In this document: positions 10,218-51,264 of the stretch, piece after piece
How the letters are laid out: each line of letters begins with the position of its first letter
How positions within the stretch are numbered: position 1 is the first letter of the stretch
DNA from: Terriglobia bacterium
GTDB lineage: Bacteria; Acidobacteriota; Terriglobia; 20CM-2-55-15
Direction of reading: 5' to 3'
Length of the DNA: 64,000 nt
Assembly (NCBI GenBank): GCA_965198225.1
Contig: CBDAOY010000005.1
Coordinates: 800,001-864,000, forward strand
Program-made: the position numbers and the translations under genes
The notes under the pieces: generated by a model
The model's input: the letters and a program-made list of their open reading frames with translations, nothing else
What the model was told of the DNA's origin: nothing
Database searches by the model: none

Positions 10218-10680
10218 GATTACCCAGGAGCTAGAAAACGATAGCTCTTCCTGCCGTGGATGGCATGGAGCACCTTCGGGGCGAGCGGGGGCCAGTTCCT
10301 CGACGGACCGGAAGTGCCGGATCCAGAGCAGTTGGACCTGAAGCGATCAGGCAGTGTCCGACTTGAAGGGTTCGTTGAAATAATTGGGCTATGTCGTGAT
10401 TCTTTGGGGTTTCTGTGAGCCCCAGAGTGCCCGATTTGATCGACCGATGAAATCGTACATAATGGTCGGGTGAACCTCCGGGCCATCGCCGTCTATCTCC
10501 GGGTATCCACGAGCCGCCAAAACCTCCGATTCTCAGGAGCCCGAACTCCAGACTTGGCTTCAGACCAACGCCGGCAGCGCTCTACGGCCACCTCAACCCC
10601 TACGGGAAGTACCCGCTTCGACTTGGACGAGGACCTCCACGGAGCCGCATTGAGACCGCTAAGGACACAAGGCGACGCCC

Positions 10681-10697
10681 CTTAGCGTTGGATTTTG
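10681..10697 (-). repeat. Inner 17 bp of a Tn3-family 38-bp terminal IR (5' exon of intron 1)
   Basis: Joined with 18879-18899 gives rc GGGGTCGAGTCCGGCAGGGGGCAAAATCCAACGCTAAG, exactly 38 bp with GGGG...CGCTAAG consensus. Confidence 0.8.
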
Positions 10698-11188
10698 GTG
10701 CGCCGTGAAAGGCGCCATTCCCCAGCGGGTGCGAACCCCGCCCGGCAACTGTCGCTCCAGCCGGTAGCAGTCGGAGCGGACGATGGAGGTAACGACATCG
10801 GCTGAAGCACTCCGATGACAAAGGGCCGCCCTGGGCGGTTCAGCGACCACGCGGGCCGCAACGATGTGAACGCTGCGCAGGCCTCGTAACGAAGCGATGC
10901 GGAAGCCGATCCGCCCGGAATACGGGGAAGGCTGCCAGCGGTCGGGAAGCGAGCGACGCGAGCACCGACCGGTTCCGCCGGGGTAGTAGCGGCGGCACGT
11001 GTGGAAGGGGGGGATGGACGCAACACGGGAAGCCCTGCCGGTGGCGTGGCATGCGCCAACCGACAGCCCGCGAGGGTCAGGTTGGGCCGACAGGGTGGCG
11101 GAGAGGTCCGCAGTACCAGGGAAGCCGGGTAATGCCGGTGGAGGGAAGGGACCTCAGTTCGAGAGCAGCGCATGACGGAGGAAGGGAC

Positions 11189-12415
11189 ATGAGGACTGGC
11201 GAGAGCCTAACAGCCTCGGAGAGAGTTCAGCGACTCCAGACGGCGCTACATGCGAAAGCGAAGGAAGCTCTGGGCTTCCGGTTCTACTCTCTGAGCGACA
11301 AGGTGTGGCGCGACGACGTGCTCGCAGTCGCCTGGCAGGCCGTGCGCCGCAACGGCGGCGCGGCCGGGGTGGACGGCGAGACGGTCGGAGACATCGAGGC
11401 GCTTGGGGTAGACCGGTGGCTGGGAGCACTGGCGCGGGACCTGAAGGAAGGGACCTATCGGCCGCATGCGGTTCGGCAGGTTCTCATCCGAATGCCGAAG
11501 AAGCAACGAGGGAAGTTCCGGCCGTTGGGCATTCCGTGTCTCCGGGATCGGGTGGTGCAGACGGCGGCGATGCTGGTGTTATCGCCGATCTTCGAAGCCG
11601 ACCTGCAACCGGAGCAGTATGCGTACCGGCCGGGCCGAGACGCGCATGATCGCAGGACGGGCCACCGGCGATCTGGTGTTACGCGCGTGCCATCGGCTGC
11701 TGAGGACGGGCCACCGGGAGGTGGTGGACGCCGCCGCACGAACCGGGCGCGTCACGAGCGGAAGGGGACCCCGCAAGGGTCTCCGATCTCGCCGCTGTTC
11801 AGCAACATCTACATGCGGCGCTTCATTCTGGGCTGGAAGGTGCTGGGCTACGCCCGGCACTTCAAGGCGGAAATCGTCAACTACGCGGATGACTTCGCGG
11901 TTCTCTGTCGCGCGCCGGCAGCGGTAATGCTAGCGGCGGTCGAAGCCCTGATGAAACGTCTGAAGTTGGCGATGAACGTTGAGAAGACCCGCTGCTGCCG
12001 GGTGCCGGAGGAATCGATGACGTTCCTCGGCTACCGGATTGGTTGCAACTACCGGCCGGACACGGGTACCGCCTACATAGGCACACGTCCGAGCCGGGAA
12101 AGCGTCCAGAGCATCTGCCGTCGTGTGAGCGAGTTGACCACGCCGCGTCACGCGCTCCTGCCGCCGGAGGTCGTAGTGGGACGCCTCAACCGGTTGCTGA
12201 CCGGTTGGGCGAACTACTTCACCCTGGGACAGGTCAGCCCGGCCTACGAGGCGATTGACCGGCACGCAACTCGGCGGCTGCGCCAGTGGCTCTGCCGTAA
12301 GCACAAGGTGCGGACCGGGAAACACGTGCGCTTCCCGGTCGAGCGGCTCTGGTCCGATTACGGGCTCACGCATCTTGCGCCGCGTACGGCGAGCTTTCCG
12401 TGGGCGAAGGCATGA
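11189..12415 (+). pseudogene. Intron 1 reverse transcriptase/maturase with internal deletion
   Basis: AAGVDG, RPLGIP..DRVVQ, GTPQGSPISPL, NYADD, domain X; the RT3 segment between AYRPGR and GTPQG is largely missing. Confidence 0.85.
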
Positions 12416-12867
12416 TCTCGTCCGAGAGCCGGATGCGGGAAATCTGCATGTCCGGTTCGATGAGCGTTGCGCCTTGCAAGCGCATGAGATCCAGTCGCCT
12501 GAGATGGCGGCCGTGGCAGAGCCTAGCCGGCAGCCACGTACCGAGTCTTGCGTGGTGGTCGGTGACGGACACTGCGAAGCGTAGACAGGGAGGGAGTAGG
12601 CCGGAACACCAGTGAACGGAAAGATAGCCCCGAAATCGAACGTGGTTGAAGTAGCCGACCCTGTCGCTCTAGGGGGAAGGCGGAATCGCAGGGCACGCAA
12701 TGGCAAGTGCCCTGGGGTGCTTCCGGGGTTCGTACCGCCGGCATGCAACCAAGGATTTCATGGGAACAAGGGAGATCCGTCAGGTTCAAGCGGAGCTTGT
12801 AGGGTTGGACAAGCCAACAACGCGAGGAAGACCCGAAGGCCTGTCGGAAGTCAGACTGGCTGATAGT

Positions 12868-13771
12868 GCGTGCCTGGCAGCACGCGTTTCCGGCGGGTTA
12901 AAGTCCCGCTCGGCCCGAGGCCACGGGTCGATATCCAACAAGTGGGGGTAATGCCTCACTGGCCGAAGTGTAGACAGGTAGTGCAGATGCCTAAACGGGC
13001 ACGAAGGCGAAAGCCGGATACGGCCAAGGCAAAGCTGGAGCCAGCTACGGAAACTTTGGAGGGCAGGGCGCCCACCGCGAGGTGGGGTCTGAAGGGCATG
13101 AGGAGAACCACCGGGTCGTAATCGACGGGAGCCATCCCGAGGATGAACCGGTCGGCCAAAGATGGGGAATGGTCGAGCCCGCACTATTGGGGCGAAGGCG
13201 CATTGGTTCCACCCCATCGCACCAAGGTGTGTGCGGGCGACACGGTGGAGAAGAGACGCGAGTGACCCAGGGAGGCCTGGTATCGTCCGAGCGGAAGGTA
13301 AGGTCGAGATGATGTGGCACCCGCAGACGAAAGGGCGGGCAACCGAGAAGACAAACATCGACCTAGAGCCCTGCGCGGTAGGTGCGGATATAAGCGAGAG
13401 CGAAATTCCGGCCGACGCGGTGTCAGGAATCGGATCGGGGAATAGTACTCAGGAACGAGACGGCAAACATAAGGTCTCGGATCGTTGCTTCGAGCAGCGG
13501 CGCTGGCGGGTCCAAAAGGCCCGTTGGAGGGGGAAGTCCCCGTACTCAGTCGTGAATGTGCGAGCGATGGGAAACGCGGAGATATCGTGAACTTGGATAG
13601 TTCCCTTAGCGAAAGACCCAAACGCGGTACGAACGAAGCCGCCACCTGCCGCCACACAGCGAATTCCGAACGAGGAGCAACTGAGGAAAGCGGCTTGCGG
13701 GAAAACCGCACGAGCCGTTTGATTGAGCGGACGGTGGAAGGGCCGATCGGCCCGACCACTTTCGACTCTAC
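12868..13771 (+). ncRNA. ORF-less group II intron 3 (~904 nt)
   Basis: 5' GCGTG; EBS1 loop ACTATT 13183-13188 followed by GAAGG; DV GAAAGCGGCTTGCGGGAAAACCGCACGAGCCGTTT; 3' CTCTAC; no RT ORF. Confidence 0.85.
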
Positions 13772-14096
13772 ACTCAGGAACGAGACGGCAAACATAAGGT
13801 CTCGGATCGTTGCTTCGAGCAGCGGCGCTGGCGGGTCCAAAAGGCCCGTTGGAGGGGGAAGTCCCCGTACTCAGTCGTGAATGTGCGAGCGATGGGAAAC
13901 GCGGAGATATCGTGAACTTGGATAGTTCCCTTAGCGAAAGACCCAAACGCGGTACGAACGAAGCCGCCACCTGCCGCCACACAGCGAATTCCGAACGAGG
14001 AGCAACTGAGGAAAGCGGCTTGCGGGAAAACCGCACGAGCCGTTTGATTGAGCGGACGGTGGAAGGGCCGATCGGCCCGACCACTTTCGACTCTAC
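13447..14096 (+). repeat. Tandem direct repeat of the 325-bp DIII-DVI half of intron 3
   Basis: 13447-13771 and 13772-14096 appear identical by eye (ACTCAGGAACGAG...CGACTCTAC). Confidence 0.92.
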
Positions 14097-14198
14097 ACTC
14101 CGAGGTCGGGAGAGCCGATCACATGGGGAAGCGGCCAGCAGAAGTGGACTCGTTCTTGGGAAACATGAGCTCCATGCAACGGGAGGATACGGTCCTCT

Positions 14199-15545
14199 AT
14201 GCAACGAGAGGAACAACCAGTCATGGAAACGAAACTGGAACGAATAGCGGCGAAAGCTCGGAGTGAGCCAAAGCTCCGGTTCACGTCACTGGCGCATCAT
14301 GTCACCCGAGAGCGTGTGTGGAAGAACCTGTGTCAAGTGCCCCGCAACACGGCTCCCGGATGTGATGGTCAGAGGGTACCGGAGGCGAAGGAGGAATTCG
14401 GAGTCTGGGTGGAGCCAATGCTCCAGTCTGTTCACCAGAAGGGATATCGCGCTCCGCCGATTCGGCGGGTGTATATCCCCAAGCCCGGCAAGCAGGAGAA
14501 ACGTCCCCTGGGCGTGCCCTGTGTTCAAGATCGGGCCCTTCAGCGCAGCGTGGCCGAGGTATTGGTCGCCATCTACGAGCAGGACTTCTTGCCCTGTTCC
14601 TTTGGTGGCCGGCCTGGGCTGGGCGCCCACAATGCACTGGCAACCCTCCATGAGGTGATTTCCGGATGCAAGGTGAGTTGGGTGTTGGAGGCGGACTTGA
14701 AGAACTTTTTCGGGAGTTTAGACCATGGATGGCTACTCCGCTTTGTGGAGCATCGAGTCGGAGATCCGCGGATCATCAGTCTGATACGACGATGGTTAAA
14801 GGCGGGCGTTTTCGAAGACGGGGAATTGCATTCGAACGAAGAGGGAACCCCGCAAGGTGGGTCGATCAGCGTTCTGCTGAGCAATCTGTACCTGCATTAT
14901 GTGCTTGACCTGTGGTTTGACCGGATGGTCCGGCCACGCCTGAAGGGTGAAGCGTATCTGGTGCGGTACATCGACGACTTTGTCGTGTGTTTCCAATATC
15001 GGGACGATGCGCTTCGTTTCCAGAACGTTCTGCGCAAGCGACTGGGAAAGTTTGGACTGGTTCCGGAGCCGACCAAGACGAAGCTCGTCGAATTCGGCCG
15101 CTATGCCCAGCGCGATGTCGTCCGGCGCGGGAGAAAACGTCCAGAGACGATCTATTTTCTGGGCATGACCCTGTACTGTACGCGTAATCGCAAAGGCAAT
15201 TTTAGAGTGGGACTGCGAACAGAGAAGTCTCGACTTCGACGCAGTCTGGCTCATCTACGCGGCGTGATGAGGCGAATGCGTCACTTGCCGGTCCGGGAGC
15301 AAGTGCACAATCTGAACCGAGTCTTGCGCGGGCACTACGCCTACTATGGCATTGCCGGGAACCTCCGGGCTCTGCAGCACGTCGCTCGGGCCGTGGAACG
15401 TTACTGGCGCCAAATGCTCAGCAGTCGTAGTCGTGCAGGCTTCGTCCGGTGGGAAGTATTCAACCGGATTCAGCTGCACTTTCCGTTACAGCGTCCCAAG
15501 TTGGCTCTCCGCTATCGGGAGTTCCAGTCTCTCGCTGTGCTGTAA
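14199..15545 (+). CDS. Intron 2 reverse transcriptase/maturase (no endonuclease domain)
   Basis: RPLGVP..DRALQ, LEADLKNFF, GTPQGGSIS, RYIDDF, domain X (LRGHYAYYG). Confidence 0.93.
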   Translation: MQREEQPVMETKLERIAAKARSEPKLRFTSLAHHVTRERVWKNLCQVPRNTAPGCDGQRVPEAKEEFGVWVEPMLQSVHQKGYRAPPIRRVYIPKPGKQEKRPLGVPCVQDRALQRSVAEVLVAIYEQDFLPCSFGGRPGLGAHNALATLHEVISGCKVSWVLEADLKNFFGSLDHGWLLRFVEHRVGDPRIISLIRRWLKAGVFEDGELHSNEEGTPQGGSISVLLSNLYLHYVLDLWFDRMVRPRLKGEAYLVRYIDDFVVCFQYRDDALRFQNVLRKRLGKFGLVPEPTKTKLVEFGRYAQRDVVRRGRKRPETIYFLGMTLYCTRNRKGNFRVGLRTEKSRLRRSLAHLRGVMRRMRHLPVREQVHNLNRVLRGHYAYYGIAGNLRALQHVARAVERYWRQMLSSRSRAGFVRWEVFNRIQLHFPLQRPKLALRYREFQSLAVL

Positions 15546-15631
15546 ATCCAATTCTGAAGAGCGCAGTGCGGGAAATCCGCACGCTGCGTTCTGTGGGAGC
15601 CGGAGGCGGGCAACTGCCTCCGGCCACCCGG

Positions 15632-17038
15632 GCGGATTCGGGCGCCGATTTTGAGAAGCTTCAGACGGATGGTCCCGCACTGGGCATGGGCCATCGCGGT
15701 ATCTTTGAGCCCGAGGCGTCGCAGGGCATGCATGAGCATGTACGCAGCTGAGGAGAGATAGAGCCGGAGCTGATTGGCGCGCATGGTCGCCGCGCTGGTC
15801 CGGTCCGCAAATAGGTCCAACTGCTGTTCCTTGATACGGTTCTCCATGTCGCCCCGCGCGCAGTAGAAGTCCTCATACAAAGCGCGGGCTTGGAAGCGTT
15901 CCGGCGGCAGGGAGGTCACGATGAATCGGGGATTGGCGCCCTTGTCCAGGAACTCCGCCTTGCCGACGACGCGTCGCGCGCGGGTCCAGCTGTTTAGAGT
16001 CCGGTACTGGAAATCCTTAAACACCCGCGCCGGTTTCCCGGTGGCGTTAAACTCCGCTTCCGCCTGAACCATTTCTTCAGCGATTTCTTGCTTGAGACGA
16101 CTGTTCTTGGCCAACCCGATCACATAATCGACCGGATGGGATTCACACCAGGCGAGCAGTTCATCCCTGCAAAAGCCCGAGTCGGCCCGGATGATGATCG
16201 ATACTGTGGGCCACACCTGTCGGATCTGACCGACGATGCGCTCTAACTCATCCACCGCTCCGTCGGCCCCGTCAATGTTGGAACGCCGGAGCCGGGCGCA
16301 CAGCAGATGTTCTCCCGAGAAGATGTACAACGGCAGGTAGCAGTAGTTGCCGTAGTAGCCGTGAAAGAACCGTCCTTCCTGGTTGCCATGGATCGTATCG
16401 TCGGTGGCATCCAGGTCCAGAACGATCTCAGAGGGCTCCGATTCGTGGGCCGCGATAAACGCGTCGACCATCCACCGGTCGATCTTGTCGCCATCCATGG
16501 CGATCTTCTTGTACCGCTCCTGGCCATCGACCTGCTCTGCGGTCAGTTCCAACCGGTTCAGCGTGCACTTGCCTGCCAACGCCTTTCCCCGGTCTCCGGC
16601 CTGCCGCCGGTTTTTTCCCAGTGGATCGGCCTTCTCCACCGCCACGGCCAGCATCGGATCGGTCCGTAGCTGGTCGTGGTCGTTCAGGTCCTCATAGCCC
16701 AAGCACAGTCCATAAATCCGCTGGCCCAACAACTCCTTCACGCTGTGTTCGATCAACCTCGGGTCCCGGTGATCGGTAAAACACTGCTCCAGTCCGGCGA
16801 TCAAACCCGTCCGCTTCTCGACTTCCCTCAACAGCAGAACACCCGCGTCGGAGGTGATCTTTCCGCCGTCGAATCGCGCCTTCACTTTCCGTTGAAAAAG
16901 TCCGTGAAATTCGAACGTGGCTTGCTTACACTCTGTTCTCATAAGGGCCGTCTCCGTTTGGGTTTTTAAACGTTTCTCGTCAAACGCTTTATGCCAAACA
17001 GGGCGGCCTTTTCTGGTCCTATCCGTGAAATATAGGGG
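15632..17038 (-). mobile_element. IS1380-family element, transposase 15632-16942 truncated at C-terminus
   Basis: FDGGKITSDAG, LGYEDLNDHD, IVLDLDATDD, IRADSGF, YCARGDMENRIKE; one terminus near 17038, the other replaced by intron 2 3' end. Confidence 0.9.
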
Positions 17039-18769
17039 CTAGCCGGCAGCCACGTACCGAGTCTTGCGTGGTGGTCGGTGACGGACACTGCGAAGCGTAG
17101 ACAGGGAGGGAGTAGGCCGGAACACCAGTGAACGGAAAGATAGCCCCGAAATCGAACGTGGTTGAAGTAGCCGACCCTGTCGCTCTAGGGGGAAGGCGGA
17201 CACTCCGAGGTCGGGAGAGCCGATCACATGGGGAAGCGGCCAGCAGAAGTCGACTTCGGATCTTGGGACTCCCGAGCTCAATGCATTCCGGGACACGGGT
17301 CTATGCAACGAGTCGGCTACAACGTCCAGATCGCTGAAACGACACTGAGCACGAACCTGATCGCCGAACAGCAGGTCGGAGTGAGCCAAGGTCTCCGGTT
17401 CTCGGTCACTGCTCGCATCATGTCACGGCGACAGCGGTCGTGGAAGAACCTGTGGCAAGTGCGACGCAGATCGACGGTCGCGGATGTGATGGCTCTACAA
17501 GTATCGAAGACGATTGAGGACTTCGAAGCCGCCGTGGAGCCAATGCTCCTAGTCTGTTCCAGAAGCCCGATATCGGCGCACGGCCAGATTCGGCGGGTGT
17601 ATATCCCCAAGCCCGGCAAGCAGGAGAAACGTCCCCTGGGCGTGCCCTGTGTTCAGCGATCGGGCCCTTCATCGCGCAGCGTGGCCGAGGTATTGGTCGC
17701 GCATCTACGAGCACGTACTTCTTGTCAGTTACTTTGGTGGCCGGCCTGGGCTGGGCGCCCGCAATGCAGAGGCTGCGGTCATGACGCGATTTCCGGATGT
17801 ACCAAGAACACCTATCGGCGCATGGACGCGACTTCGAAGAACTTTTTCGGAAGTTTAGACGATGGATGGCTACTCCGCTTTGTGGAGCATCGAGTCGGAG
17901 ATCCGCGGATCATCAGTCTGATACGACGATGGTTAAAGGCGGGCGTTTTCGAAGACGGGGAATTGCATTCGAACGAAGAGGGAACCCCGCAAGGTGGGTC
18001 GATCAGCGTTCTGCTGAGCAATCTGTACCTGCATTATGTGCTTGACCTGTGGTTTGACCGGATGGTCCGGCCACGCCTGAAGGGTGAAGCGTATCTGGTG
18101 CGGTACATCGACGACTTTGTCGTGTGTTTCCAATATCGGGACGATGCGCTTCGTTTCCAGAACGTTCTGCGCAAGCGACTGGGAAAGTTTGGACTGGTTC
18201 CGGAGCCGACCAAGACGAAGCTCGTCGAATTCGGCCGCTATGCCCAGCGCGATGTCGTCCGGCGCGGGAGAAAACGTCCAGAGACGATCTATTTTCTGGG
18301 CATGACCCTGTACTGTACGCGTAATCGCAAAGGCAATTTTAGAGTGGGACTGCGAACAGAGAAGTCTCGACTTCGACGCAGTCTGGCTCATCTACGCGGC
18401 GTGATGAGGCGAATGCGTCACTTGCCGGTCCGGGAGCAAGTGCACAATCTGAACCGAGTCTTGCGCGGGCACTACGCCTACTATGGCATTGCCGGGAACC
18501 TCCGGGCTCTGCAGCACGTCGCTCGGGCCGTGGAACGTTACTGGCGCCAAATGCTCAGCAGTCGTAGTCGTGCAGGCTTCGTCCGGTGGGAAGTATTCAA
18601 CCGGATTCAGCTGCACTTTCCGTTACAGCGTCCCAAGTTGGCTCTCCGCTATCGGGAGTTCCAGTCTCTCGCTGTGCTGTAAATCCAATTCTGAAGAGCG
18701 CAGTGCGGGAAATCCGCACGCTGCGTTCTGTGGGAGCCGGAGGCGGGCAACTGCCTCCGGCCACCCGGT
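17039..18769 (+). pseudogene. Second, 5'-truncated copy of intron 2 with deletion and chimeric segment
   Basis: 17039-17200 matches 12523-12685; 17860-18769 matches the 3' part of the first copy; ends ACCCGGT. Confidence 0.85.
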
Positions 18770-18878
18770 GCGACTGGAAACGAAGCCACGGCGAGGAGTG
18801 AGGCACCGGAATCGGCGAAAGCCACCGGCAACAGCTACCCCCTTTGCCTACCGCCACCGCGCCAGTCGTCGACTCTAC

Positions 18879-18899
18879 CCCCCTGCCGGACTCGACCCC
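18879..18899 (-). repeat. Outer 21 bp of the Tn3-family IR split by intron 1
   Basis: CCCCCTGCCGGACTCGACCCC immediately after the intron 3' end. Confidence 0.8.
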
Positions 18900-19391: not shown

Positions 19392-19394
19392 CGA

Positions 19395-20660
19395 TCGCGG
19401 CGAACACGCATCCGGATCACGACACGATCGCGGCGTTTCGGAAGCGGTTTCTGAAGCAGTTGAAGCCGTTGTTCGTGCAGATTCTTCTGCTGGCGCGGAC
19501 GATGGGATTTTTGAAGCTGGGGAAGATCAGTCTGGATGGGAGCAAGGTCGAGGCGAATGCATCGAAACATAGCGCGTTGAGCTGGGGGCACGCGACGGAG
19601 TTGGAAGAAGAGTTGAAGGCCGAAGTCGCGCGCCTGATGGAGTTGGCGGCGGCGGCCGACGCGGAAGTGCCGGAGGGAATCGACATCCCGGCCGAACTGA
19701 AGCGGCGCGAGGACCGGCTGAAAGCGATCGCCGAGGCGAAAGCGAAGATCGAGGCGCGCGCTGCGGAACGCCATGCGGCCGAGCAGGCCGAGTAGGAGGC
19801 CAAGATGGCCCAACGCAAGGCCCGGGCCAAAGCGACCGGGAAACGGCCGGGAGGCAAGCCGCCGCAACCGCCCCAATCGGGCGTGCGCCCGAACGACCAG
19901 ATCAATCTGACCGACGAGGAATCGCGCATCATGCCGGCGGGCGGGAAGAGTTTCCAGCAAGCCTATAACGTGCAGGCGGGGGTCGACACCGAGACCCTGC
20001 TCATCGTCACCGAATCCGTCACAACGCACGCCAACGACAAACAGGAATCGAACCGGCGCTCGGGACTCTCGATGCACTGCCTCAACCGCTGGGAAAGGTC
20101 GAGGCGATACTGGTCGACAATGGCTACTACAGCGAAGGGAACGTGAAGGCGTGCGAAACGGCCGGCGTGATGCCCTACATCGCCATGGGCCGTGAGCGCC
20201 ATCATCCACCGGTGGAACAGCCTTGGACCGAACCGCCACCGCTGTCGCCCGACGCGAACCCGGTCGACGCCATGGCCCATCGGCTATCGACGATCGAGGG
20301 CCGGGCCGTTTACGCTCAGCGCAAATCCACGGTCGAGCCGGTGTTTGGAATCGTCAAATCCGTGCTGGGATTCCGGCAGTTTCACCTCAGGGGACTCGAC
20401 CCGGTATCCGGTGAATGGACGCTGGTCAGCATCGCCTGGAACCTGAAACGCCTGTTCAATCTCTCCGGGCAGGTCTCCTGCCCGACTGATCCCCGCTCCA
20501 GCCGCCCGTCCGGACGCCAAAAACGCGACTCCGGGCTCCTGCGTGGATCTCCGGCGTCCGAATCCGGCTCTCTCTTGCGACGTCTCAGGTCGATGGTCTC
20601 GTCAATGTTCAATCACACGCTCGGAGACGCGCCGTTGCTACGGTCAAGTCCGACAGGCTG
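19395..20660 (+). pseudogene. IS1182-family element, 5'-truncated, with stop and frameshift; relative of 43556-45156
   Basis: HPDHDTIAAFRKRF, ISLDGSKV, QINLTDEESRIM, RKSTVEPVFG; end AAGTCCGACAGGCTG-CTAG. Confidence 0.88.
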
Positions 20661-25312: not shown

Positions 25313-25936
25313 TTGGACGCCGCCTTGAAAACCGTCGCTTACCTCCGCGTCTCCACTCGTTCGCAGGACCTCGCCAACCAGAAGCTGGCGATCCTCGAGT
25401 TCAGCCAGAAACGCCGATTCCCGATCGACCAATTCATCGAGTCCCGGATCTCGTCGCGCAAGAGTCCGCTCGAGCGCCGCATTGACGAGATGTTGGGGAC
25501 GCTTCAGCCCGGCGACCGTCTGCTGGTCAGCGAGTTGTCGCGGCTCGGCCGCAGCCTCTCTCAGGTGATCCAGCTCGTGGAGACCCTGGTCCGGCGCAAG
25601 ATCCGCTTCATCGCCATCAAGGAGGCGATCGAGTTCGACGGCAAGCAGGACCTGCGGACTAAGGTGATGATCGCGCTGTTCGGATTGTTTGCCGAGGTCG
25701 AGCGGGACCTGATCTCAGAACGGACCAAGGAAGGACTCGCCTCTGCCAAAGCCAAGGGGAAACGGCTCGGCCGACCCAAGGGGGCCTTGGGAACATCCAG
25801 GCTCGACGGCAAGGAGCAAGACATCCGGGCGCTGTTGGGCAAGGATGTCTCCAAGGCCTCGATCGCCAAGATCCTGAACGTCTCCCGCTCCGCCCTCTAC
25901 CACTTTATCGAGACCCGCAAGATCGCTCCGGGCTGA
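25313..25936 (+). CDS. Serine recombinase/resolvase
   Basis: AYLRVST, VSELSRLGRS, AEVERDLISERTKEGL, LGRP, C-terminal HTH; exact start uncertain. Confidence 0.92.
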   Translation: MDAALKTVAYLRVSTRSQDLANQKLAILEFSQKRRFPIDQFIESRISSRKSPLERRIDEMLGTLQPGDRLLVSELSRLGRSLSQVIQLVETLVRRKIRFIAIKEAIEFDGKQDLRTKVMIALFGLFAEVERDLISERTKEGLASAKAKGKRLGRPKGALGTSRLDGKEQDIRALLGKDVSKASIAKILNVSRSALYHFIETRKIAPG

Positions 25937-25973
25937 CCCCAAGGCTCGGACCGCACTTATGTTGTATTTCAAC

Positions 25974-26166
25974 GTGCACCGTGAGAAGGCGCCAATCCTC
26001 AGCGGGTGCGAATCCCGCCCGGCAACTGTCGCTCCAGTCGGTAGCAATCGGAGCGGATGGTGGAGGTAACAACATCGTCTGAAGCACTCCGATGACAAAG
26101 GGCCGCCTCGGGCGGCTCAGCGACCACACAGGCCACAACGCGAGTAAACGCCGAGCAGGCCTCGTA
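25974..26166 (+). pseudogene. 5' fragment (domain I) of an intron-1-family group II intron
   Basis: GTGCACCGTGAGAAGGCGCC... closely similar to 10698-10888; cut by IS110 end. Confidence 0.85.
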
Positions 26167-27864: not shown

Positions 27865-29580
27865 CAGACTGTGTGAAAAGTCCAAGTCGTGGATCGCTGA
27901 TCCGGCAACACCGAAGGGCAAGCACGATGACGGACCCGTGGCGACGCAGATCACTCGGGGCTGCCAGCCTTTTCGGTGGCGTGAGGTGTTGCTGTGACTG
28001 GGAAACGCGGGATGGAGGCGGATTGTTGCGCCAAAAACAGGCGGATTACCCGGTCAAACCGCTGCGACGGCAATCAAGGCGGGAATTCCTACGAGGTTGA
28101 TTGCGCGGCGCATGTTGTAGGCCAAGGCGGTGAGGCTGAACTCCCCGCGGACATTGCCGAGTCGGCGCGTCAGGAACGCGCCTTGGCCCATCCACTGCTT
28201 GATCGAACCGAAGGGATGCTCGACCGACTCCCGGCGACGATCCATCACCTCGGGCCGGGCGGCGAGACGGTTCGCCATGCGCTCCATCGTTGCTTCGTTC
28301 TCGAAGCGCGTGATGCGCCGATAGGTGTTCTTGGTACATCGTTCGCGTAGACCGCAGCCTCTGCATGCGGCGCGGTTGGCGTAACTGACAAGATACGTGC
28401 CTGTGCGCGACTTACCGACGCTTCCGCGATACAACGGCACCAGGCGCTCACCAGCGGGGCACCGGTAGGTGTCCGTGGAGTCGTCGTATTGGAAATCGGA
28501 CTTCGGAAAGTGGCCACTGCGTCTGGCCGTGCTCCGGTCGGGCTTCGGAACGTAGGGCGTGATCCCGGCGGCTTCGCAGTCCTCAATGTCTTCGATCTTG
28601 TAGTAGCCTCGGTCCGCGACCGCGTCGATCTCGTCGACAGCCAAGTTCTCCCGAGCCGCTGTGGCCGTCTCCGCGAGCAGACCGAGGTCCGAGACCTTGC
28701 TATGGACCTGCTGTTCGGCGATCAGGTTGTGCTCAGTGTCGACAGCGATCTGGACGTTGTAGCCGACTCCGACCCGTGTCCCGGAATGCATTGACCGGGA
28801 GTCCGGATCCGTAAGCGACAGCTGGGCTTCTCCGGTATCGTCCAGCGTCTGCCGATGCCCCTCCAAGGTCTCCTTTCTCTTACGGATCGATGCGATCTTC
28901 TCCTGAAGATCCGCCACGGCAGCCGCTCTGCCGCCGGCATCATCCGCGTCGGCCTCGTTCACCTGGTCGAGGTAGCGGTCGAGTCGGTCGTCGATACGCT
29001 GCAGGTCCGTCTTCAGCTTGGCCCGCGTGAAGTTGCGGTCCCGGTGGTTCACCGCCTTGATGCGCGTGCCGTCCACGGCGATCAACTCCCGCCCGTACAG
29101 GTCGAGTTCCCGGCACAACCGCACGAACCGCCGAAACACCGCCCGGAACGCATGCCGATTGTCGCGCCGGAAGTCGGCGATCGTCTTGAAGTCGGGCTTC
29201 AGCTGGCGTAGCAGCCAGATCGCCTCGAGGTTGCGATGCGTCTCTGTCTCCAGCCTGCGGCTCGACCGAATACGATTCAGATACCCGTAGATATACAGCT
29301 TCAGCAGATCCGCGGGATCGTAGCCTGGACGGCCCTTGTCGTTGGGCCGAACGCGCTGGAATCCAGCCGCCTCAAGGTCGAGACCGTCGACGAATGCATC
29401 AATGAAACGGACCGGGTTGTCCGGTCCCACGTAGTCGTCCACAGTATCGGGCAGAAGCAGAAGCTGGGAACGGTCTTCACCGGTGATATGTGCCATGACA
29501 CATTTTACCAACCGCCATGGGGAACCTGATGCCAGTTCACCGACTCCCGCCCGGCTGTCGCCGACTTTTCACACAGTCTG
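27865..29580 (-). mobile_element. IS1182-family element, intact (transposase 28054-29511)
   Basis: IRs CAGACTGTGTGAAAAG / CTTTTCACACAGTCTG; 4-bp GAAC duplication; PDFKTIADFRR, AVDGTRI, VEHPFG. Confidence 0.95.
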
Positions 29581-35270: not shown

Positions 35271-35536
35271 CAACACGATCCGGACCTTCTTCTCAGACGA
35301 GTAGGGGTTACGATAGCAAGGGGTACCGCCCAGATTGCTGCAAAAATGTGTGTCCAGTGAAGGCTGGCATGTTCAGTGGGAGGCAGTCCCACCGGGGTAG
35401 AAGTCAGAGCCCCGGAGCTTGAGTTGTATCTGTGGAGGAGACGAAGAGTTATAACCGAATCTGGTTATGAGGAGGGAATCGACACCTCGGACATGCTGCT
35501 CTCCCTCGCCGGGTTATGGGCTTCGCATAAAGGCCA

Positions 35537-43555: not shown

Positions 43556-45156
43556 CAGCCTGTCGGACTTTTGGGACCGGAATTGGACGCCAGGCATGCC
43601 AGAAACAGGGGCATGAGCGAACGATTCCGAGCGGTCGATCGAGACACGCCGTACTTGTTGCCGCCGTCGGTCCAGGACTGGCTTCCGGAAGAGCACCTGG
43701 CGCGGTTCGTTGTAGAGGTGGTGTCGAAGCTGGACCTGCGTGACCTGGAGAAGGAGTACGCGGGGCGGGGTTCGAAGGCCTACCATCCGGAGATGCTGCT
43801 GGCGTTGCTGTTTTACGGATACGCGACGGGAGTGTTTGCGAGCCGGAAACTGGAACAGGCGACGTGGGATTCGCTGGCGTTCCGATATATCGCGGCGAAC
43901 ACGCATCCGGATCACGACACGATCGCGGCGTTTCGGAAGCGGTTCCTGAAGCAGTTGAAGCCGTTGTTCGTGCAGATTCTTCTCCTGGCGCGGACGATGG
44001 GGTTTTTGAAGCTGGGCAAGATCAGTCTGGATGGGAGCAAGGTCCAGGCGAATGCATCAAAACATAGCGCATTGAGTTGGGGGCACGCGACGGAACTGGA
44101 AGAACGATTGAAGGCGGAAGTGGCGCGGCTGATGGAGTTGGCGTCGGCGGCCGATGCGGACGTGCCCGATGGAATGGACATCCCGGCCGAACTGGAGCGG
44201 CGTGAGGACCGTCTCAAAGCGATCGCCGAGGCGAAAGCGAAGCTGGAAGCGCGGGCGGCCGAACGCCATGCCGCTGAGCAAGCCGAGTACGAGGCCAAGC
44301 GGTCCAAACGTGAAGCTCGGGTCAAACAGCAGGGACGGTGTCCCGGCGGGCGGGCCCCCCAACCGCCGGCACCGGGAGTGCGGAACAGCGACCAGATCAA
44401 TCTTACCGATGAGGAATCGCGGATCATGCCGGCGGGCGGGAAGAGTTTCCAACAGGCCTACAATGTGCAGGCGGGCGTCGATACCGAAAGCATGCTGGTG
44501 GTCACCGAATCCGTCACCACACACGCCAACGACAAACAAGAAGTCGAGCCGACACTAAAGGCGCTGGAAGAACTCCCAGGACCACTTGGACGAGCCGAGG
44601 CGATACTGGCCGATAACGGTTACTACAGCGAAGCCAACGTCCGGGCCTGCGAGGCGGCGGGCGTGACGCCGTACATAGCGATGGGACGCGACCGCCATCA
44701 TCTGACGGTGGAACAACGTTGGGCCGAGCCCCCGCCTGGGGCGCCCGATGCGGGTCCGGTCGACGCGATGGCGCATCGGTTGTCGAGCGTCGATGGCCGG
44801 GCCATTTATGCCAAACGCAAGTCCACCGTCGAACCGGTATTTGGAATCGTCAAGTCCGTGTTGGGATTTCGGCAGTTTCACCTCAGGGGACTCGACGGGG
44901 CATCCGGAGAATGGACGCTGGTCAGCATGGCCTGGAATCTGAAACGGCTCTTCAATCTCACTCAGCAGTCCCCTCCCACAGCCGATCCACGCTCCAACGC
45001 CCGATCCTGGCCGGAAAGCCGCCTGGCTGGACCGCTGCACAAGCCCGTGGATCCAAAATCACAATCACTTTCGACGCTTTTCTTGCGAATGACCTCGGCA
45101 ATGTTCAATTATCGGATCGTCGATGCTCCACTGTCATTGCCAAGTCCGACAGGCTG
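43556..45156 (+). mobile_element. IS1182-family element, intact
   Basis: IRs CAGCCTGTCGGACTT / AAGTCCGACAGGCTG, CTAG on both sides; ~515-aa DDE transposase. Confidence 0.93.
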
Positions 45157-49564: not shown

Positions 49565-51264
49565 AGATCGACCGGTCCAGTTACGGGGAACATTTCGGAC
49601 CCACCACGGGCGATCGGGTGCGGCTCGGGGATACCGACCTGTTCATCGAGGTCGAATCGGACCACAGCGTCTACGGTGAGGAGGTCAAGTTCGGCGGAGG
49701 CAAGGTCATCCGCGACGGCATGGGGCAATCCGCGTCAGCGTCCCGCGAAGCCGGCTCTCCCGACCTCGTGATCACCAACGCGCTCGTCATCGATCATACG
49801 GGTATCTTCAAAGCCGACATCGCCGTTCGCGACGGCAGGATCTCCGCAATCGGCAAGGCCGGGAACCCCGACATCATGGATGGCGTTACCGAAGGGATGG
49901 CGATCAGCGCATCCACGGAGATTCTCGCGGGCGAGGGACGCATCGTCACGGCCGGCGGTATCGACGCCCACATCCATTTCATATCGCCGAATCAGATTCC
50001 GGAGGCATTCTATTCCGGCGTCACGACCCTGATCGGCGGTGGCACCGGGCCCGCGACGGGGACGAACGCGACGACCTGCACGCCCGGCCCGTGGAACATC
50101 CGACGCATGTACGAGGCGTCTGAGGCATTCCCGCTGAATTTTGGCTTTCTCGGGAAGGGGAACTCTTCGCTGCCAGGAGCTCTGGAAGAACAGATCCGAG
50201 CCGGCGCTCTCGGCCTGAAGCTCCATGAAGACTGGGGAACGACGCCGGCGGCGATTGATCAATGTCTGACAGTCGCCGACCGGTTCGACGTCCAGGTCGC
50301 GATCCACACCGATACGCTCAACGAAGCCGGGTTTGTAGAGGACACGATCGCTGCGTTCAAGGGAAGAACGATCCACACCTACCACACCGAGGGCGCCGGG
50401 GGCGGCCATGCTCCCGACATCATCCGCCTCTGCGGCGAATCGAACGTCCTGCCCTCCTCGACCAATCCCACGATGCCCTTCACGCGGAACACGATGGACG
50501 AGCACCTGGACATGCTGATGGTGTGCCACCATCTGTCGGCATCCATCCCTGAAGACGTCGCGTTTGCCGACTCGCGGATTCGAGCCGAAACGATCGCGGC
50601 CGAGGACATCCTGCACGACATGGGTGCTTTCAGCATCATGGCCTCCGACTCCCAGGCCATGGGCCGGATCGGTGAAGTCATCTGCCGGACCTGGCAGACA
50701 GCCGACAAGATGAAGAAGCAGCGCGGACGTGTCGACGAAACCGGTGACAATGACAACGTCCGGGCCAAGCGCTACGTGTCGAAGTACACGATCAACCCGG
50801 CGATCGCACACGGCATTGCCGGAACGGTGGGATCGGTCGAGGTCGGGAAGATGGCGGACCTGGTTCTGTGGAAACCGGCCTTCTTCGGCGTGAAGCCGGA
50901 GGTCATCGTGAAGGGTGGGTTCATCGCGGGGGCTGCCATGGGTGATGGGAACGCGTCGATCCCCACGCCGCAGCCCTACGTCTACCGGCCGATGTTCGGC
51001 CATCATGGCCAGGCGCTCGATTCGACTTCCGTGCACTTTGTTTCGCAGGCCGGGGTGGAGACCAACGGGCTCGACGGACTGCGCCGCAGACTCGACCCCG
51101 TCCGCGGCTGCCGTACACTCGGCAAGAAAGATCTCAAGTGGAACGATGCGACACCCAATATCGAAGTCAACCCGGAGACCTACGAAGTGCGCGCCGACGG
51201 TGAGCTGCTGACCTGCGACCCGGCCGAAATACTTCCCCTGGCGCAACGTTACTTCCTTTTCTGA
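49561..51264 (+). CDS. ureC: Urease subunit alpha
   Basis: [46 protein letters not shown]. Confidence 0.98.

Follow-up and report, generated by a model that had tools for sequence, protein, structure and literature searches.

Why does an 8.2-kb block carrying group II intron sequences stand exactly inside what looks like the terminal inverted repeat of a Tn3-family transposon? The question is raised by positions 10698-18878 of a 64,000-nt stretch of DNA from a Terriglobia bacterium (hereafter the window; positions 800001-864000 of a contig labelled C5, with C4, C6, C8 and C9 denoting other contigs of the same genome). Our analysis indicates that the block is very probably the wreck of a group II 'twintron' that retrohomed into the right-hand 38-bp repeat of a Tn3-type mini-transposon, and that this choice of site is a habit of the intron's family.

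A split Tn3-type repeat and the nest within it

The sequence to the left of the block (10681-10697) reads CTTAGCGTTGGATTTTG, the block opens with GTGCG at 10698 and closes with ..GACTCTAC at 18878, and the sequence to its right (18879-18899) reads CCCCCTGCCGGACTCGACCCC. Excising the block fuses these 17 and 21 nt into a 38-nt repeat that runs from an inner CTTAGCG to ACCCC at the tip; the exact 38 bp claimed in an earlier, sequence-only reading of this DNA were reproduced by script. In reverse complement the rebuilt 38-mer begins with GGGGTC and finishes with ACGCTAAG, which is the form that we take to be the Tn3-family consensus (~38 bp, GGGG tip, inner ..TAAG), and the same form is found in a plasmid-borne annotated case (L098, below).

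The split sequence is a Tn3-family-type terminal inverted repeat, as the sequence-only reading had proposed. Its inner 17-mer occurs five times in the 6.4-Mb genome, exactly or with one mismatch: at two places, in the window and at C5 762050, the intron comes next, and at three it belongs to uninterrupted 38-bp repeats in which CTTAGCGTTGGATTTTG continues into CACCGTTGCTATCGTAACCCC, ending AACCCC (C5 762390, C9 23090 and C8 82872), the first two being identical to the window over the 17 nt. Another 38-bp repeat of the same type lies directly 3' of a Tn3-family tnpA gene (C5 523796-524899; PF01526, 400 bits), the TAG stop of which falls within the CTTAGCG of the repeat. The outer 21 nt are found at three places in the genome, always directly after the intron 3' end, and the divergence of the flanks right after CCCC at these places is the behaviour of a transposon tip.

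Tn3 genes accompany the repeat in the window as remnants only. An N-terminal resolvase fragment (~10470-10530) is fused to a frameshifted tnpA C-terminal remnant (~10575-10685; ALYGHLNPYGKY...), which represents the last ~35 codons and whose TAG stop occupies 10683-10685 (small local search, E = 2e-6). The stretch 10333-10680 is 95-100% identical to paralogs on C5, C8 and C9, and the paralogous mini-element on C5 consists of an intact left repeat (GGGGTTACGATAGC...ACGCTAAG), an interior of ~320 bp and the inner 17 nt of the right repeat, after which the intron begins; the 3' exon of this intron was not found. In the window, 43 bp of a neighbouring IS3/IS481-like transposase gene stand in inverted orientation at 10290-10332, where the left repeat would be expected. 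The C5 paralog (762427-762730) retains the left repeat, and the transposase gene in opposite orientation.

The block itself is a nest, an intron in an intron together with insertion sequence (IS) debris, and not the single 8.2-kb intron that had first been read there. The outer intron, intron A, shows the 5' GUGYG and the domain 1 architecture of group II introns (Rfam RF02003 at 10723-10866, 80.9 bits against a cut-off of 49; partial match to RF02005 at 10881-10984), and the ~650 nt of its RNA outside the open frame fit these domain 1-4 models. Alignment to an un-nested copy of 1994 nt (C6 7952..5959) fixes intron A as 10698-12466 plus 18770-18878; in a BLAST search of the genome this copy and a second one (C5 ..743295) run from 12466 directly into the tail. 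The predicted fold of the un-nested copy includes a standard domain 5 with its 2-nt bulge; domain 6 is long, and the only A that bulges from it lies 7 nt before the 3' end. These are the domain 5 and bulged branch-site A of a group II intron. Both boundaries of the block are real element ends: the 5' end of intron A recurs at nine further places in the genome (at one of them the first two intron nt are absent), and the last 106 nt (18773-18878) recur at ten, most alignments stopping exactly at 18878. An end of intron A at 12485, where Rfam draws domain 6, was rejected; because the un-nested copies join 12466 to 18770, this Rfam 'domain 6' is part intron A and part intron B, the inner intron.

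Pfam searches returned three reverse transcriptase (RT)/maturase frames in the block (11051/11189-12415, 14199-15545 and 17228-18682), none of them with an endonuclease domain. The frame of intron A lies in domain 4, its product lacks an HNH or other endonuclease domain, and the homologues carry only PF00078 and PF08388. Compared with intact homologues of 446-479 aa, ~200 nt of its RT region have been swapped for scrambled sequence; judging from this comparison the protein is defective in the window copy. An intact copy of the family encodes a protein of 479 aa (L001). In two copies of the intron, the gene for a 344-aa protein lies on the opposite strand between intron positions 11127 and 11128 (L001 3183-4217, which is C5 ~608480-609520, and C5 744857-746311). 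This protein looks like an IS110-family transposase, and its element may be a second site-specific element that uses the intron as target. Head-to-tail introns were seen at L049, L051 and L070, where either the '5' exon' is the 3' end of another copy (..CTCGACTCTAC directly followed by GTGCG) or the 3' exon begins with GTGCGCC.

The insertion 12467-18769 lies in the 5' strand of intron A's domain 6 (..GAGCG / GCGACUGG.., a slash marking the junction here and below). The first copy of intron B has lost its final few nt and ends at ~15634, and the true 3' end (..CCCGGU) is provided by a partial second copy, in which 17039-17200 are identical to 12523-12684 and 17200-18772 are 92% identical to 14095-15634; it contains the third of the open frames given above and domains 5-6 at 18694-18769, and RF02005 also matches at 17013-17221. 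The truncated IS between the two copies has an open frame (15512-16942) that extends into intron B and matches DDE_Tnp_1_4 over model positions 3-408 of 435 (E = 3.7e-150). Contigs from other samples (four runs, mixed organisms) join 12466 directly to 18770/18772, which supports the boundaries of B. At six of six places in the genome the 37 nt of 12486-12522 follow intron A position 12485, so that B has one fixed position in A. A loop in the predicted domain 1 of intron B holds CGCUC, complementary to the GAGCG of intron A just upstream, and the B protein is only 28% identical to the A protein. Within intron B there is a perfect (100%) tandem duplication with a period of 325 bp (13447-14100), which is therefore very recent, and the start of B's second open frame (17249-17842) has 80-85% DNA similarity to 28297-28819 (minus strand), inside a DUF772/DDE transposase frame (28054-29511, minus strand).

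Table 1 Features at the occupied repeat and elsewhere in the window, with the junctions of four plasmid relatives
Feature	Position	Strand	Basis or remark
Tn3-derived mini-element, interior remnant	10333..10680	+	three-frame translation; tblastn against the C-terminus of the genome's own tnpA
5' exon of intron A: inner 17 nt of the 38-bp Tn3-family repeat	10681..10697	+	intron-binding site 1 (IBS1) at 10692-10697
Outer intron A, 5' part: 5' GUGCG, domain 1, domains 2-4, domain 5 (12426-12458), first 6 nt of the domain 6 stem	10698..12466	+	Rfam; alignment to the un-nested copy
Exon-binding site 1 (EBS1) loop of intron A (CGGAAUAC)	10916..10923	+	unbiased pairing scan; loop swaps track exon changes
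Intron A protein, RT and maturase	11189..12415	+	Pfam RVT_1 (two stretches) and GIIM
Inner intron B, copy 1	12467..15634	+	RF02005 domain 1 at 12502-12736; protein 14199-15545; domains 5-6 at 15557-15633
Truncated IS fragment, DDE transposase	15635..17038	-	Pfam DDE_Tnp_1_4
Inner intron B, partial copy 2	17039..18769	+	self-BLAST, Rfam, boundary of the un-nested copy
Outer intron A, 3' part: distal and 3' strands of the long domain 6, branch-site A 18872, 3' end ..CUCUAC	18770..18878	+	fold, recurrent 3' ends
Outer 21 nt of the 38-bp repeat (3' exon), CCCC at the transposon tip	18879..18899	+	recurrence in the genome
Second family member (subfamily targeting ..UUCAAC)	25956..26166	+	18 nt of inner end repeat (25956-25973) and the first 193 intron nt
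Buttiauxella plasmid			CTTAACGTAGGATAATTT / .. / CGTTTTCCAAGCGGCCCCC
Xenorhabdus, first copy			CTTAACGTATAATAACTT / .. / TCGAATTCCAAGCGCCGCCCC
Xenorhabdus, second copy (L106)			CTTAGCGTGGGATGTTTT / .. / TCGATATCCAAACTGACCCC; closely preceded by an annotated fragment of a Tn3-family transposase
Pantoea stewartii			CTTAGTGTAGGATCATTT /; faces a complete repeat of opposed orientation at a distance of 9 nt

Other arrangements of repeat ends were also noted. At 35321-35400 (minus strand) an uninterrupted repeat of a second type (..CACATTTTTGC continuing into AGCAATCTGGGCGGTACCCC) directly adjoins the final 16 nt of a different Tn3-type repeat (TTGCTATCGTAACCCC); here, one transposon end appears to be inserted within the repeat of another. 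At C9 19281-19320 (L009), the intron 3' end is followed by the outer repeat half, then by TTAA and then by its own reverse complement (..GCGCGACCC TTAA GGGTCGCGC..), i.e. by two repeat tips head to head. A 1.1-kb direct repeat of 83% identity (19394-20511 and 43889-45007) has one of its copies just outside the transposon tip.

Exon pairing and an upstream T-A-G

Pairing between intron and exon was assessed by a scan in which every 6-nt window of the first 330 intron nt was set against every exon window, with 78 related loci from other genomes (69-96% protein identity) and three plasmid loci as input (57 unique sites) and 200 shuffles as background. The pairing of 10916-10921 with exon positions -6 to -1 ranks first, with 93% of cells paired, whereas the shuffles averaged 49% and reached 56% at most; the scan thus arrived without bias at the hexamer that the sequence-only reading had named as EBS1. 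The loop also pairs, more weakly, up to -8. Within this genome there are two subfamilies, one with the loop CGGAAU and the exon AUUUUG or GUUCCG, the other with the loop GUUGAA and the exon UUCAAC, and among the related loci EBS1 has been retargeted to dozens of different hexamers. Intron A therefore displays the covarying EBS1-IBS1 pairing of a group II intron. A second exon-binding site (EBS2) did not emerge, as none of the 6-nt windows within the first 330 nt of the intron paired with -20 to -7 above the shuffles. GCAACG near 10858, considered as a candidate EBS2, was discarded, since introns whose exons differ have it in common and the scan shows no EBS2.

In 38 of 73 sites the first base of a stop-like triplet (TAG, TAA or TGA) is at -15 or -16, while every other offset is represented at most four times, except for eight cases at -7. 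In Tn3 repeats this triplet comes from the inner ..CTAAG, where the tnpA stop lies. For the miniature elements described below, T-A-G is the duplicated target and lies outside the element. The appearance of T-A-G at the same distance in two unrelated kinds of target suggests that the intron ribonucleoprotein reads it. Single-copy sites do not have this T-A-G. At six loci (L015, L018, L023, L029, L047 and L050), the stop triplet 15 nt upstream of the intron is precisely where open frames of 490-1024 aa terminate. Insertion 12 nt behind the stop codons of host genes was rejected as an explanation. In the loci that were inspected, a miniature element has inserted at the gene's stop codon, and the triplet is part of its 3-4-bp target duplication; we therefore read the long frames ending at -15 as a probable side effect.

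Related introns in this genome, on plasmids and in other phyla

Most intron copies in this genome sit in Tn3-type repeats of several different sequences. Of the intact 5' junctions, seven of nine have (C/T)TTA(G/T/C) 17-18 nt upstream, and the 3' junctions reach CCC(C) 18-21 nt downstream in eight of eleven cases. A second family member at 25974, reported in the sequence-only reading as lying in an inverted-repeat-like sequence just after a resolvase gene, proved real; it begins 18 nt after CTTATG, and the resolvase gene (25313-25936) lies 37 nt upstream; what is left of it is a 193-nt 5' fragment with 88% identity. Resolvase genes or fragments are found just upstream of this copy and of those at C5 748255 and C4 145572, and an unoccupied 37-bp site of the second subfamily is present at C5 752392-752356.

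Copies within one genome might descend from a one-off ectopic insertion by segmental duplication. Duplication did occur here, since the window, together with C5 764624-760112, makes up a large inverted duplication in which 1.9 kb are 99.7% identical, and C5 743295 and C6 5959 have a common 45-nt 3' flank. As an account of all copies it is highly improbable in our view: the occupied repeats in this genome differ in sequence and in both flanks, EBS1 covaries with the differing repeats, and independent cases exist on plasmids and in other phyla.

The best protein matches on plasmids are ~50-55% identical, the enterobacterial relative 51%. At four of the eleven plasmid loci fetched (L094, L099, L106 and L105), copies of one enterobacterial intron, near-identical to each other, occupy four different Tn3-type repeats (GGGG...CG/TG-TTAAG/CTAAG; Table 1), always 18 nt from the inner end. 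The 5' flank of the Buttiauxella case matches 1716 plasmid records. In one of them, from a Shewanella plasmid (L098), the flank corresponds to the right end, 38 bp and uninterrupted, of an annotated Tn3-family transposon with genes for a transposase, a recombinase and a chemotaxis protein; in another, from a Klebsiella plasmid (L097), the match breaks 17 nt from the inner end and adjoins an annotated IS4321-family transposase, behind which the second half of the repeat was not found. Judged from these alignments, in which the IS boundary is given by loss of homology only, the intron relative and the IS4321-family element use the same spot of the repeat within ~1 nt, and the comparison with IS4321/IS5075 drawn in the sequence-only reading turns out to hold literally.

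The lineage comprises more than 120 protein clusters at a level of at least 78% identity on record, from several phyla, and some relatives sit in the ends of other transposon families, in opposite geometry. Two families of miniature elements were entered 12-13 nt inside the outer end: the first is ~113 bp long, has the ends GGACAGTGATCGA / TATAAAGTTGCCA and 3-bp duplications, and the second has the ends CAGCCCGTGGTG / AAACCCCGCG and identical 4-bp duplications in five of seven elements with both ends visible. A third family (TAGCCCGCAT..TTCA / CCAGTCCG) is found in this genome and in a gammaproteobacterium. We call these elements IS5-like on the assumption that 3-4-bp YTAR/TNA duplications are typical of the IS5 family. 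Further sites are the end regions of ~2.6-kb elements encoding IS21-like transposases (L063 and L075), a repeat tipped by GGGG that has its inverted partner at a distance of 1 kb (L061-66), and loci with Tn3-like 3' exons ending in GTACCC(C) (L011 and L017). No Pfam family was detected in the long open frames beside L017, L072 and L094. The lineage specialised on transposon ends that had been proposed is borne out insofar as homologue junctions are enriched in end repeats; it is not universal, and many sites are unclassifiable.

Two ways of understanding this enrichment were considered. The bolder one, which we put forward tentatively and as a possibility rather than an expectation, is that this endonuclease-less lineage without EBS2 is a dedicated parasite of DNA-transposon termini (Tn3-family, IS5-like miniature and IS21-like), which inserts 12-13 nt past T-A-G and ~12-28 nt from the tips, finds its sites via transposition forks or single strands and, by disarming one end with each insertion, acts as a natural transposon brake. 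The plainer one combines a sampling effect with a simple sequence need: an intron would become multi-copy only if its EBS1 fits repeated DNA, mostly transposons, and T-A-G would be needed ~15 nt upstream. Tn3 repeats, by their inner ..CTAAG, and miniature elements that duplicate YTAG-like targets would then both happen to offer the triplet, and the frequency of stop-like triplets at -15/-16 and the ready retargeting of EBS1 are in keeping with this. So are the two miniature families, where TAG stems from the target duplication and not from the element and where the geometry is reversed, with the 5' exon on the outer side, as well as the single-copy sites L055, L056, L031 and L085, which have no repeat or TAG. 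What this account leaves unexplained is that repeats make up a few percent of the transposon length and yet the intron is in the repeat and not in the transposase gene, a preference that holds for Tn3-type elements (at least nine repeat sequences, two distant sublineages), three miniature families and two IS21-like elements. Moreover, homing to identical copies is insufficient, because the near-identical enterobacterial intron has the same position in four different Tn3 repeat sequences. We regard sampling and sequence need together as a conceivable but doubtful explanation.

Several observations weigh against reading the block as a twintron homed into a Tn3-type repeat by family habit. The exact 38-mer has no uninterrupted copy in the genome and no inverted partner at up to eight mismatches; the search for a partner, which had been suggested from the sequence alone, did yield uninterrupted resembling repeats, including a left-hand partner in the paralogous mini-element. 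The inner 17 nt are identical in the left repeat of the paralog, while the outer 21 nt match this repeat and the uninterrupted relatives at 11 of 21 positions only. The left repeat of the window's own element is gone, replaced at 10290-10332, and three uninterrupted repeats with perfect or near-perfect IBS1 are still unoccupied in the genome. Among 15 of the 52 contig joints, those listed, no empty-site joint of 10697 to 18879 was present. The RF00029 match to domains 5-6 of the nested intron A (12424-12485) scores 39.3 bits, below the cut-off of 40, because domain 6 is interrupted in the window. Elsewhere, a Tn3-type repeat was not seen at seven of the eleven fetched plasmid loci, a tblastn search with two of this genome's tnpA fragments detected no Tn3 transposase up to 5 kb from any of the 78 related loci, and an inverted partner beating all 30 shuffles was found at 15 of 54 loci only (~2 expected by chance), in a search that is weak for imperfect repeats and with L021 and L071 doubtful among the 15; the related loci beyond these are unclassified sites.

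Proposed course of events, known systems and consequences

In the reading that we favour, retrohoming of a twintron into a Tn3-type end as a family habit, intron A would have entered the right-hand repeat so as to leave 17 nt on the inner side and 21 nt up to the tip, locating the site mainly via 6-8 bp of pairing between EBS1 (10916-10923) and the last bases of the 5' exon. By analogy with endonuclease-less introns, the RNA would reverse-splice into the inner-to-outer strand (5'-CTTAGCG...CCCC-3'), and reverse transcription into complementary DNA would use a host DNA end at a replication fork as primer. Read-through from tnpA would transcribe the intron and leave the gene uninterrupted, because the site lies just past the tnpA stop. 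Later damage, for which the order given is a presumed one, comprised homing of B into domain 6 of A, breakage of B by an IS fragment and a partial duplication, and scrambling of A's RT gene; the copy is therefore dead. We take the site choice to be a habit of the family, in which EBS1 has changed within this genome to match several Tn3-type repeat sequences.

Binding of the Tn3 transposase needs the inner two thirds of the 38 bp. Splitting the repeat into 17 and 21 nt would remove the contiguous transposase-binding part, and the transposon end should no longer be functional; splicing cannot mend it, because the repeat acts as DNA. One might instead suppose that the repeat still works with the intron as cargo and that the three loci with the outer 21 nt arose by transposition. 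The 21-nt outer half plus intron tail does occur at three places with three different outside flanks, which three independent homing events would explain equally well, and the GGGG tip and 21 nt remain contiguous with the end, whereas the needed inner two thirds (on the general requirement just given) lies 2-8 kb away in the split repeat. As all occupied elements seen are degenerate and without an adjacent intact tnpA, we think a working, intron-bearing end unlikely.

IS4321 and IS5075, members of the IS1111 group of the IS110 family, insert in the 38-bp repeats of Tn21-type transposons. They resemble the intron A family in their class of target, in nearly the same spot, in the use of one orientation and in splitting the repeat, and differ in being DNA elements with a DEDD transposase, whereas the intron A family is an RNA-guided retroelement with an RT/maturase. 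Twintrons, or introns homing into introns, are known from archaeal introns and from c-Ha.de.I1, which inserts in its own copies. The presence of intron B at a single position of intron A in all places seen is similar; the difference is that the site of B is the domain 6 stem of A and not an open frame, and that the two proteins are so distant.

Other introns home into insertion sequences. Among them are E.c.I4 in IS3-like transposase genes, c-Ha.de.I1 in ISPlu15-like elements and RmInt1 in ISRm2011-2; RmInt1-type introns, too, are without an endonuclease domain (PMC4615759). As in our case, a mobile element as target gives many dispensable sites and a ride between hosts (PMC3522654, excerpts). 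The IS-homing introns differ in using specific positions within the IS, and for E.c.I4 in transposase genes, splicing can restore the message (PMC3522654, same excerpts), whereas the site of intron A is a non-coding end repeat acting as DNA, where splicing restores nothing. Class C (IIC) introns, which according to excerpts of PMC4424553 occur at terminators and integron attC sites, share with intron A the lack of an endonuclease domain and of a detectable EBS2 and a short IBS1, and have as target a class of DNA motif and not a single sequence. Intron A differs from them by ~650 nt of RNA, its RF02003/RF02005 match, its long domain 6 and sites that are not behind terminator hairpins; no terminator or attC hairpin lies directly upstream in any of the Tn3 cases. 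Endonuclease-less IIB-like introns of classes F and E resemble intron A in that they encode nothing beyond RT and maturase and start with 5' GUGCG, a likeness that we offer as a lead and not as a phylogenetic placement. The long domain 6 stem of intron A has its parallel in class F (IIF), for which PMC3753933 reports such a stem and an apparent EBS2 without a role in in vitro self-splicing. A IIB intron at integrons is mentioned in an excerpt of PMC7923331, and an intron has been proposed to be able to control the spread of its host IS (PMC4238363, excerpt). No report of group II introns homing into Tn3 or other terminal repeats was found in the open-access texts searched (supplements excluded).

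If the favoured reading is true, terminal repeats are a further target class for group II introns, beside transposase genes, terminators and attC sites, and an RNA-guided retroelement and the IS4321/IS5075 DNA elements converge on the same few bases of a 38-bp repeat. Each insertion should then disable a transposon end, as a parasite on a parasite, which may limit the spread of Tn3-family elements. With a freely retargeted EBS1 of 6-8 nt, no detectable EBS2 and a fixed upstream T-A-G, the family would also be a tractable system for studying endonuclease-less targeting beyond base pairing.

Outside the subjects treated so far, the Rfam 5' ureB sRNA family (RF02514) matches 49707-50005 on the minus strand of the window over its full length with 85 bits; to our knowledge, this family comes from Helicobacter only.

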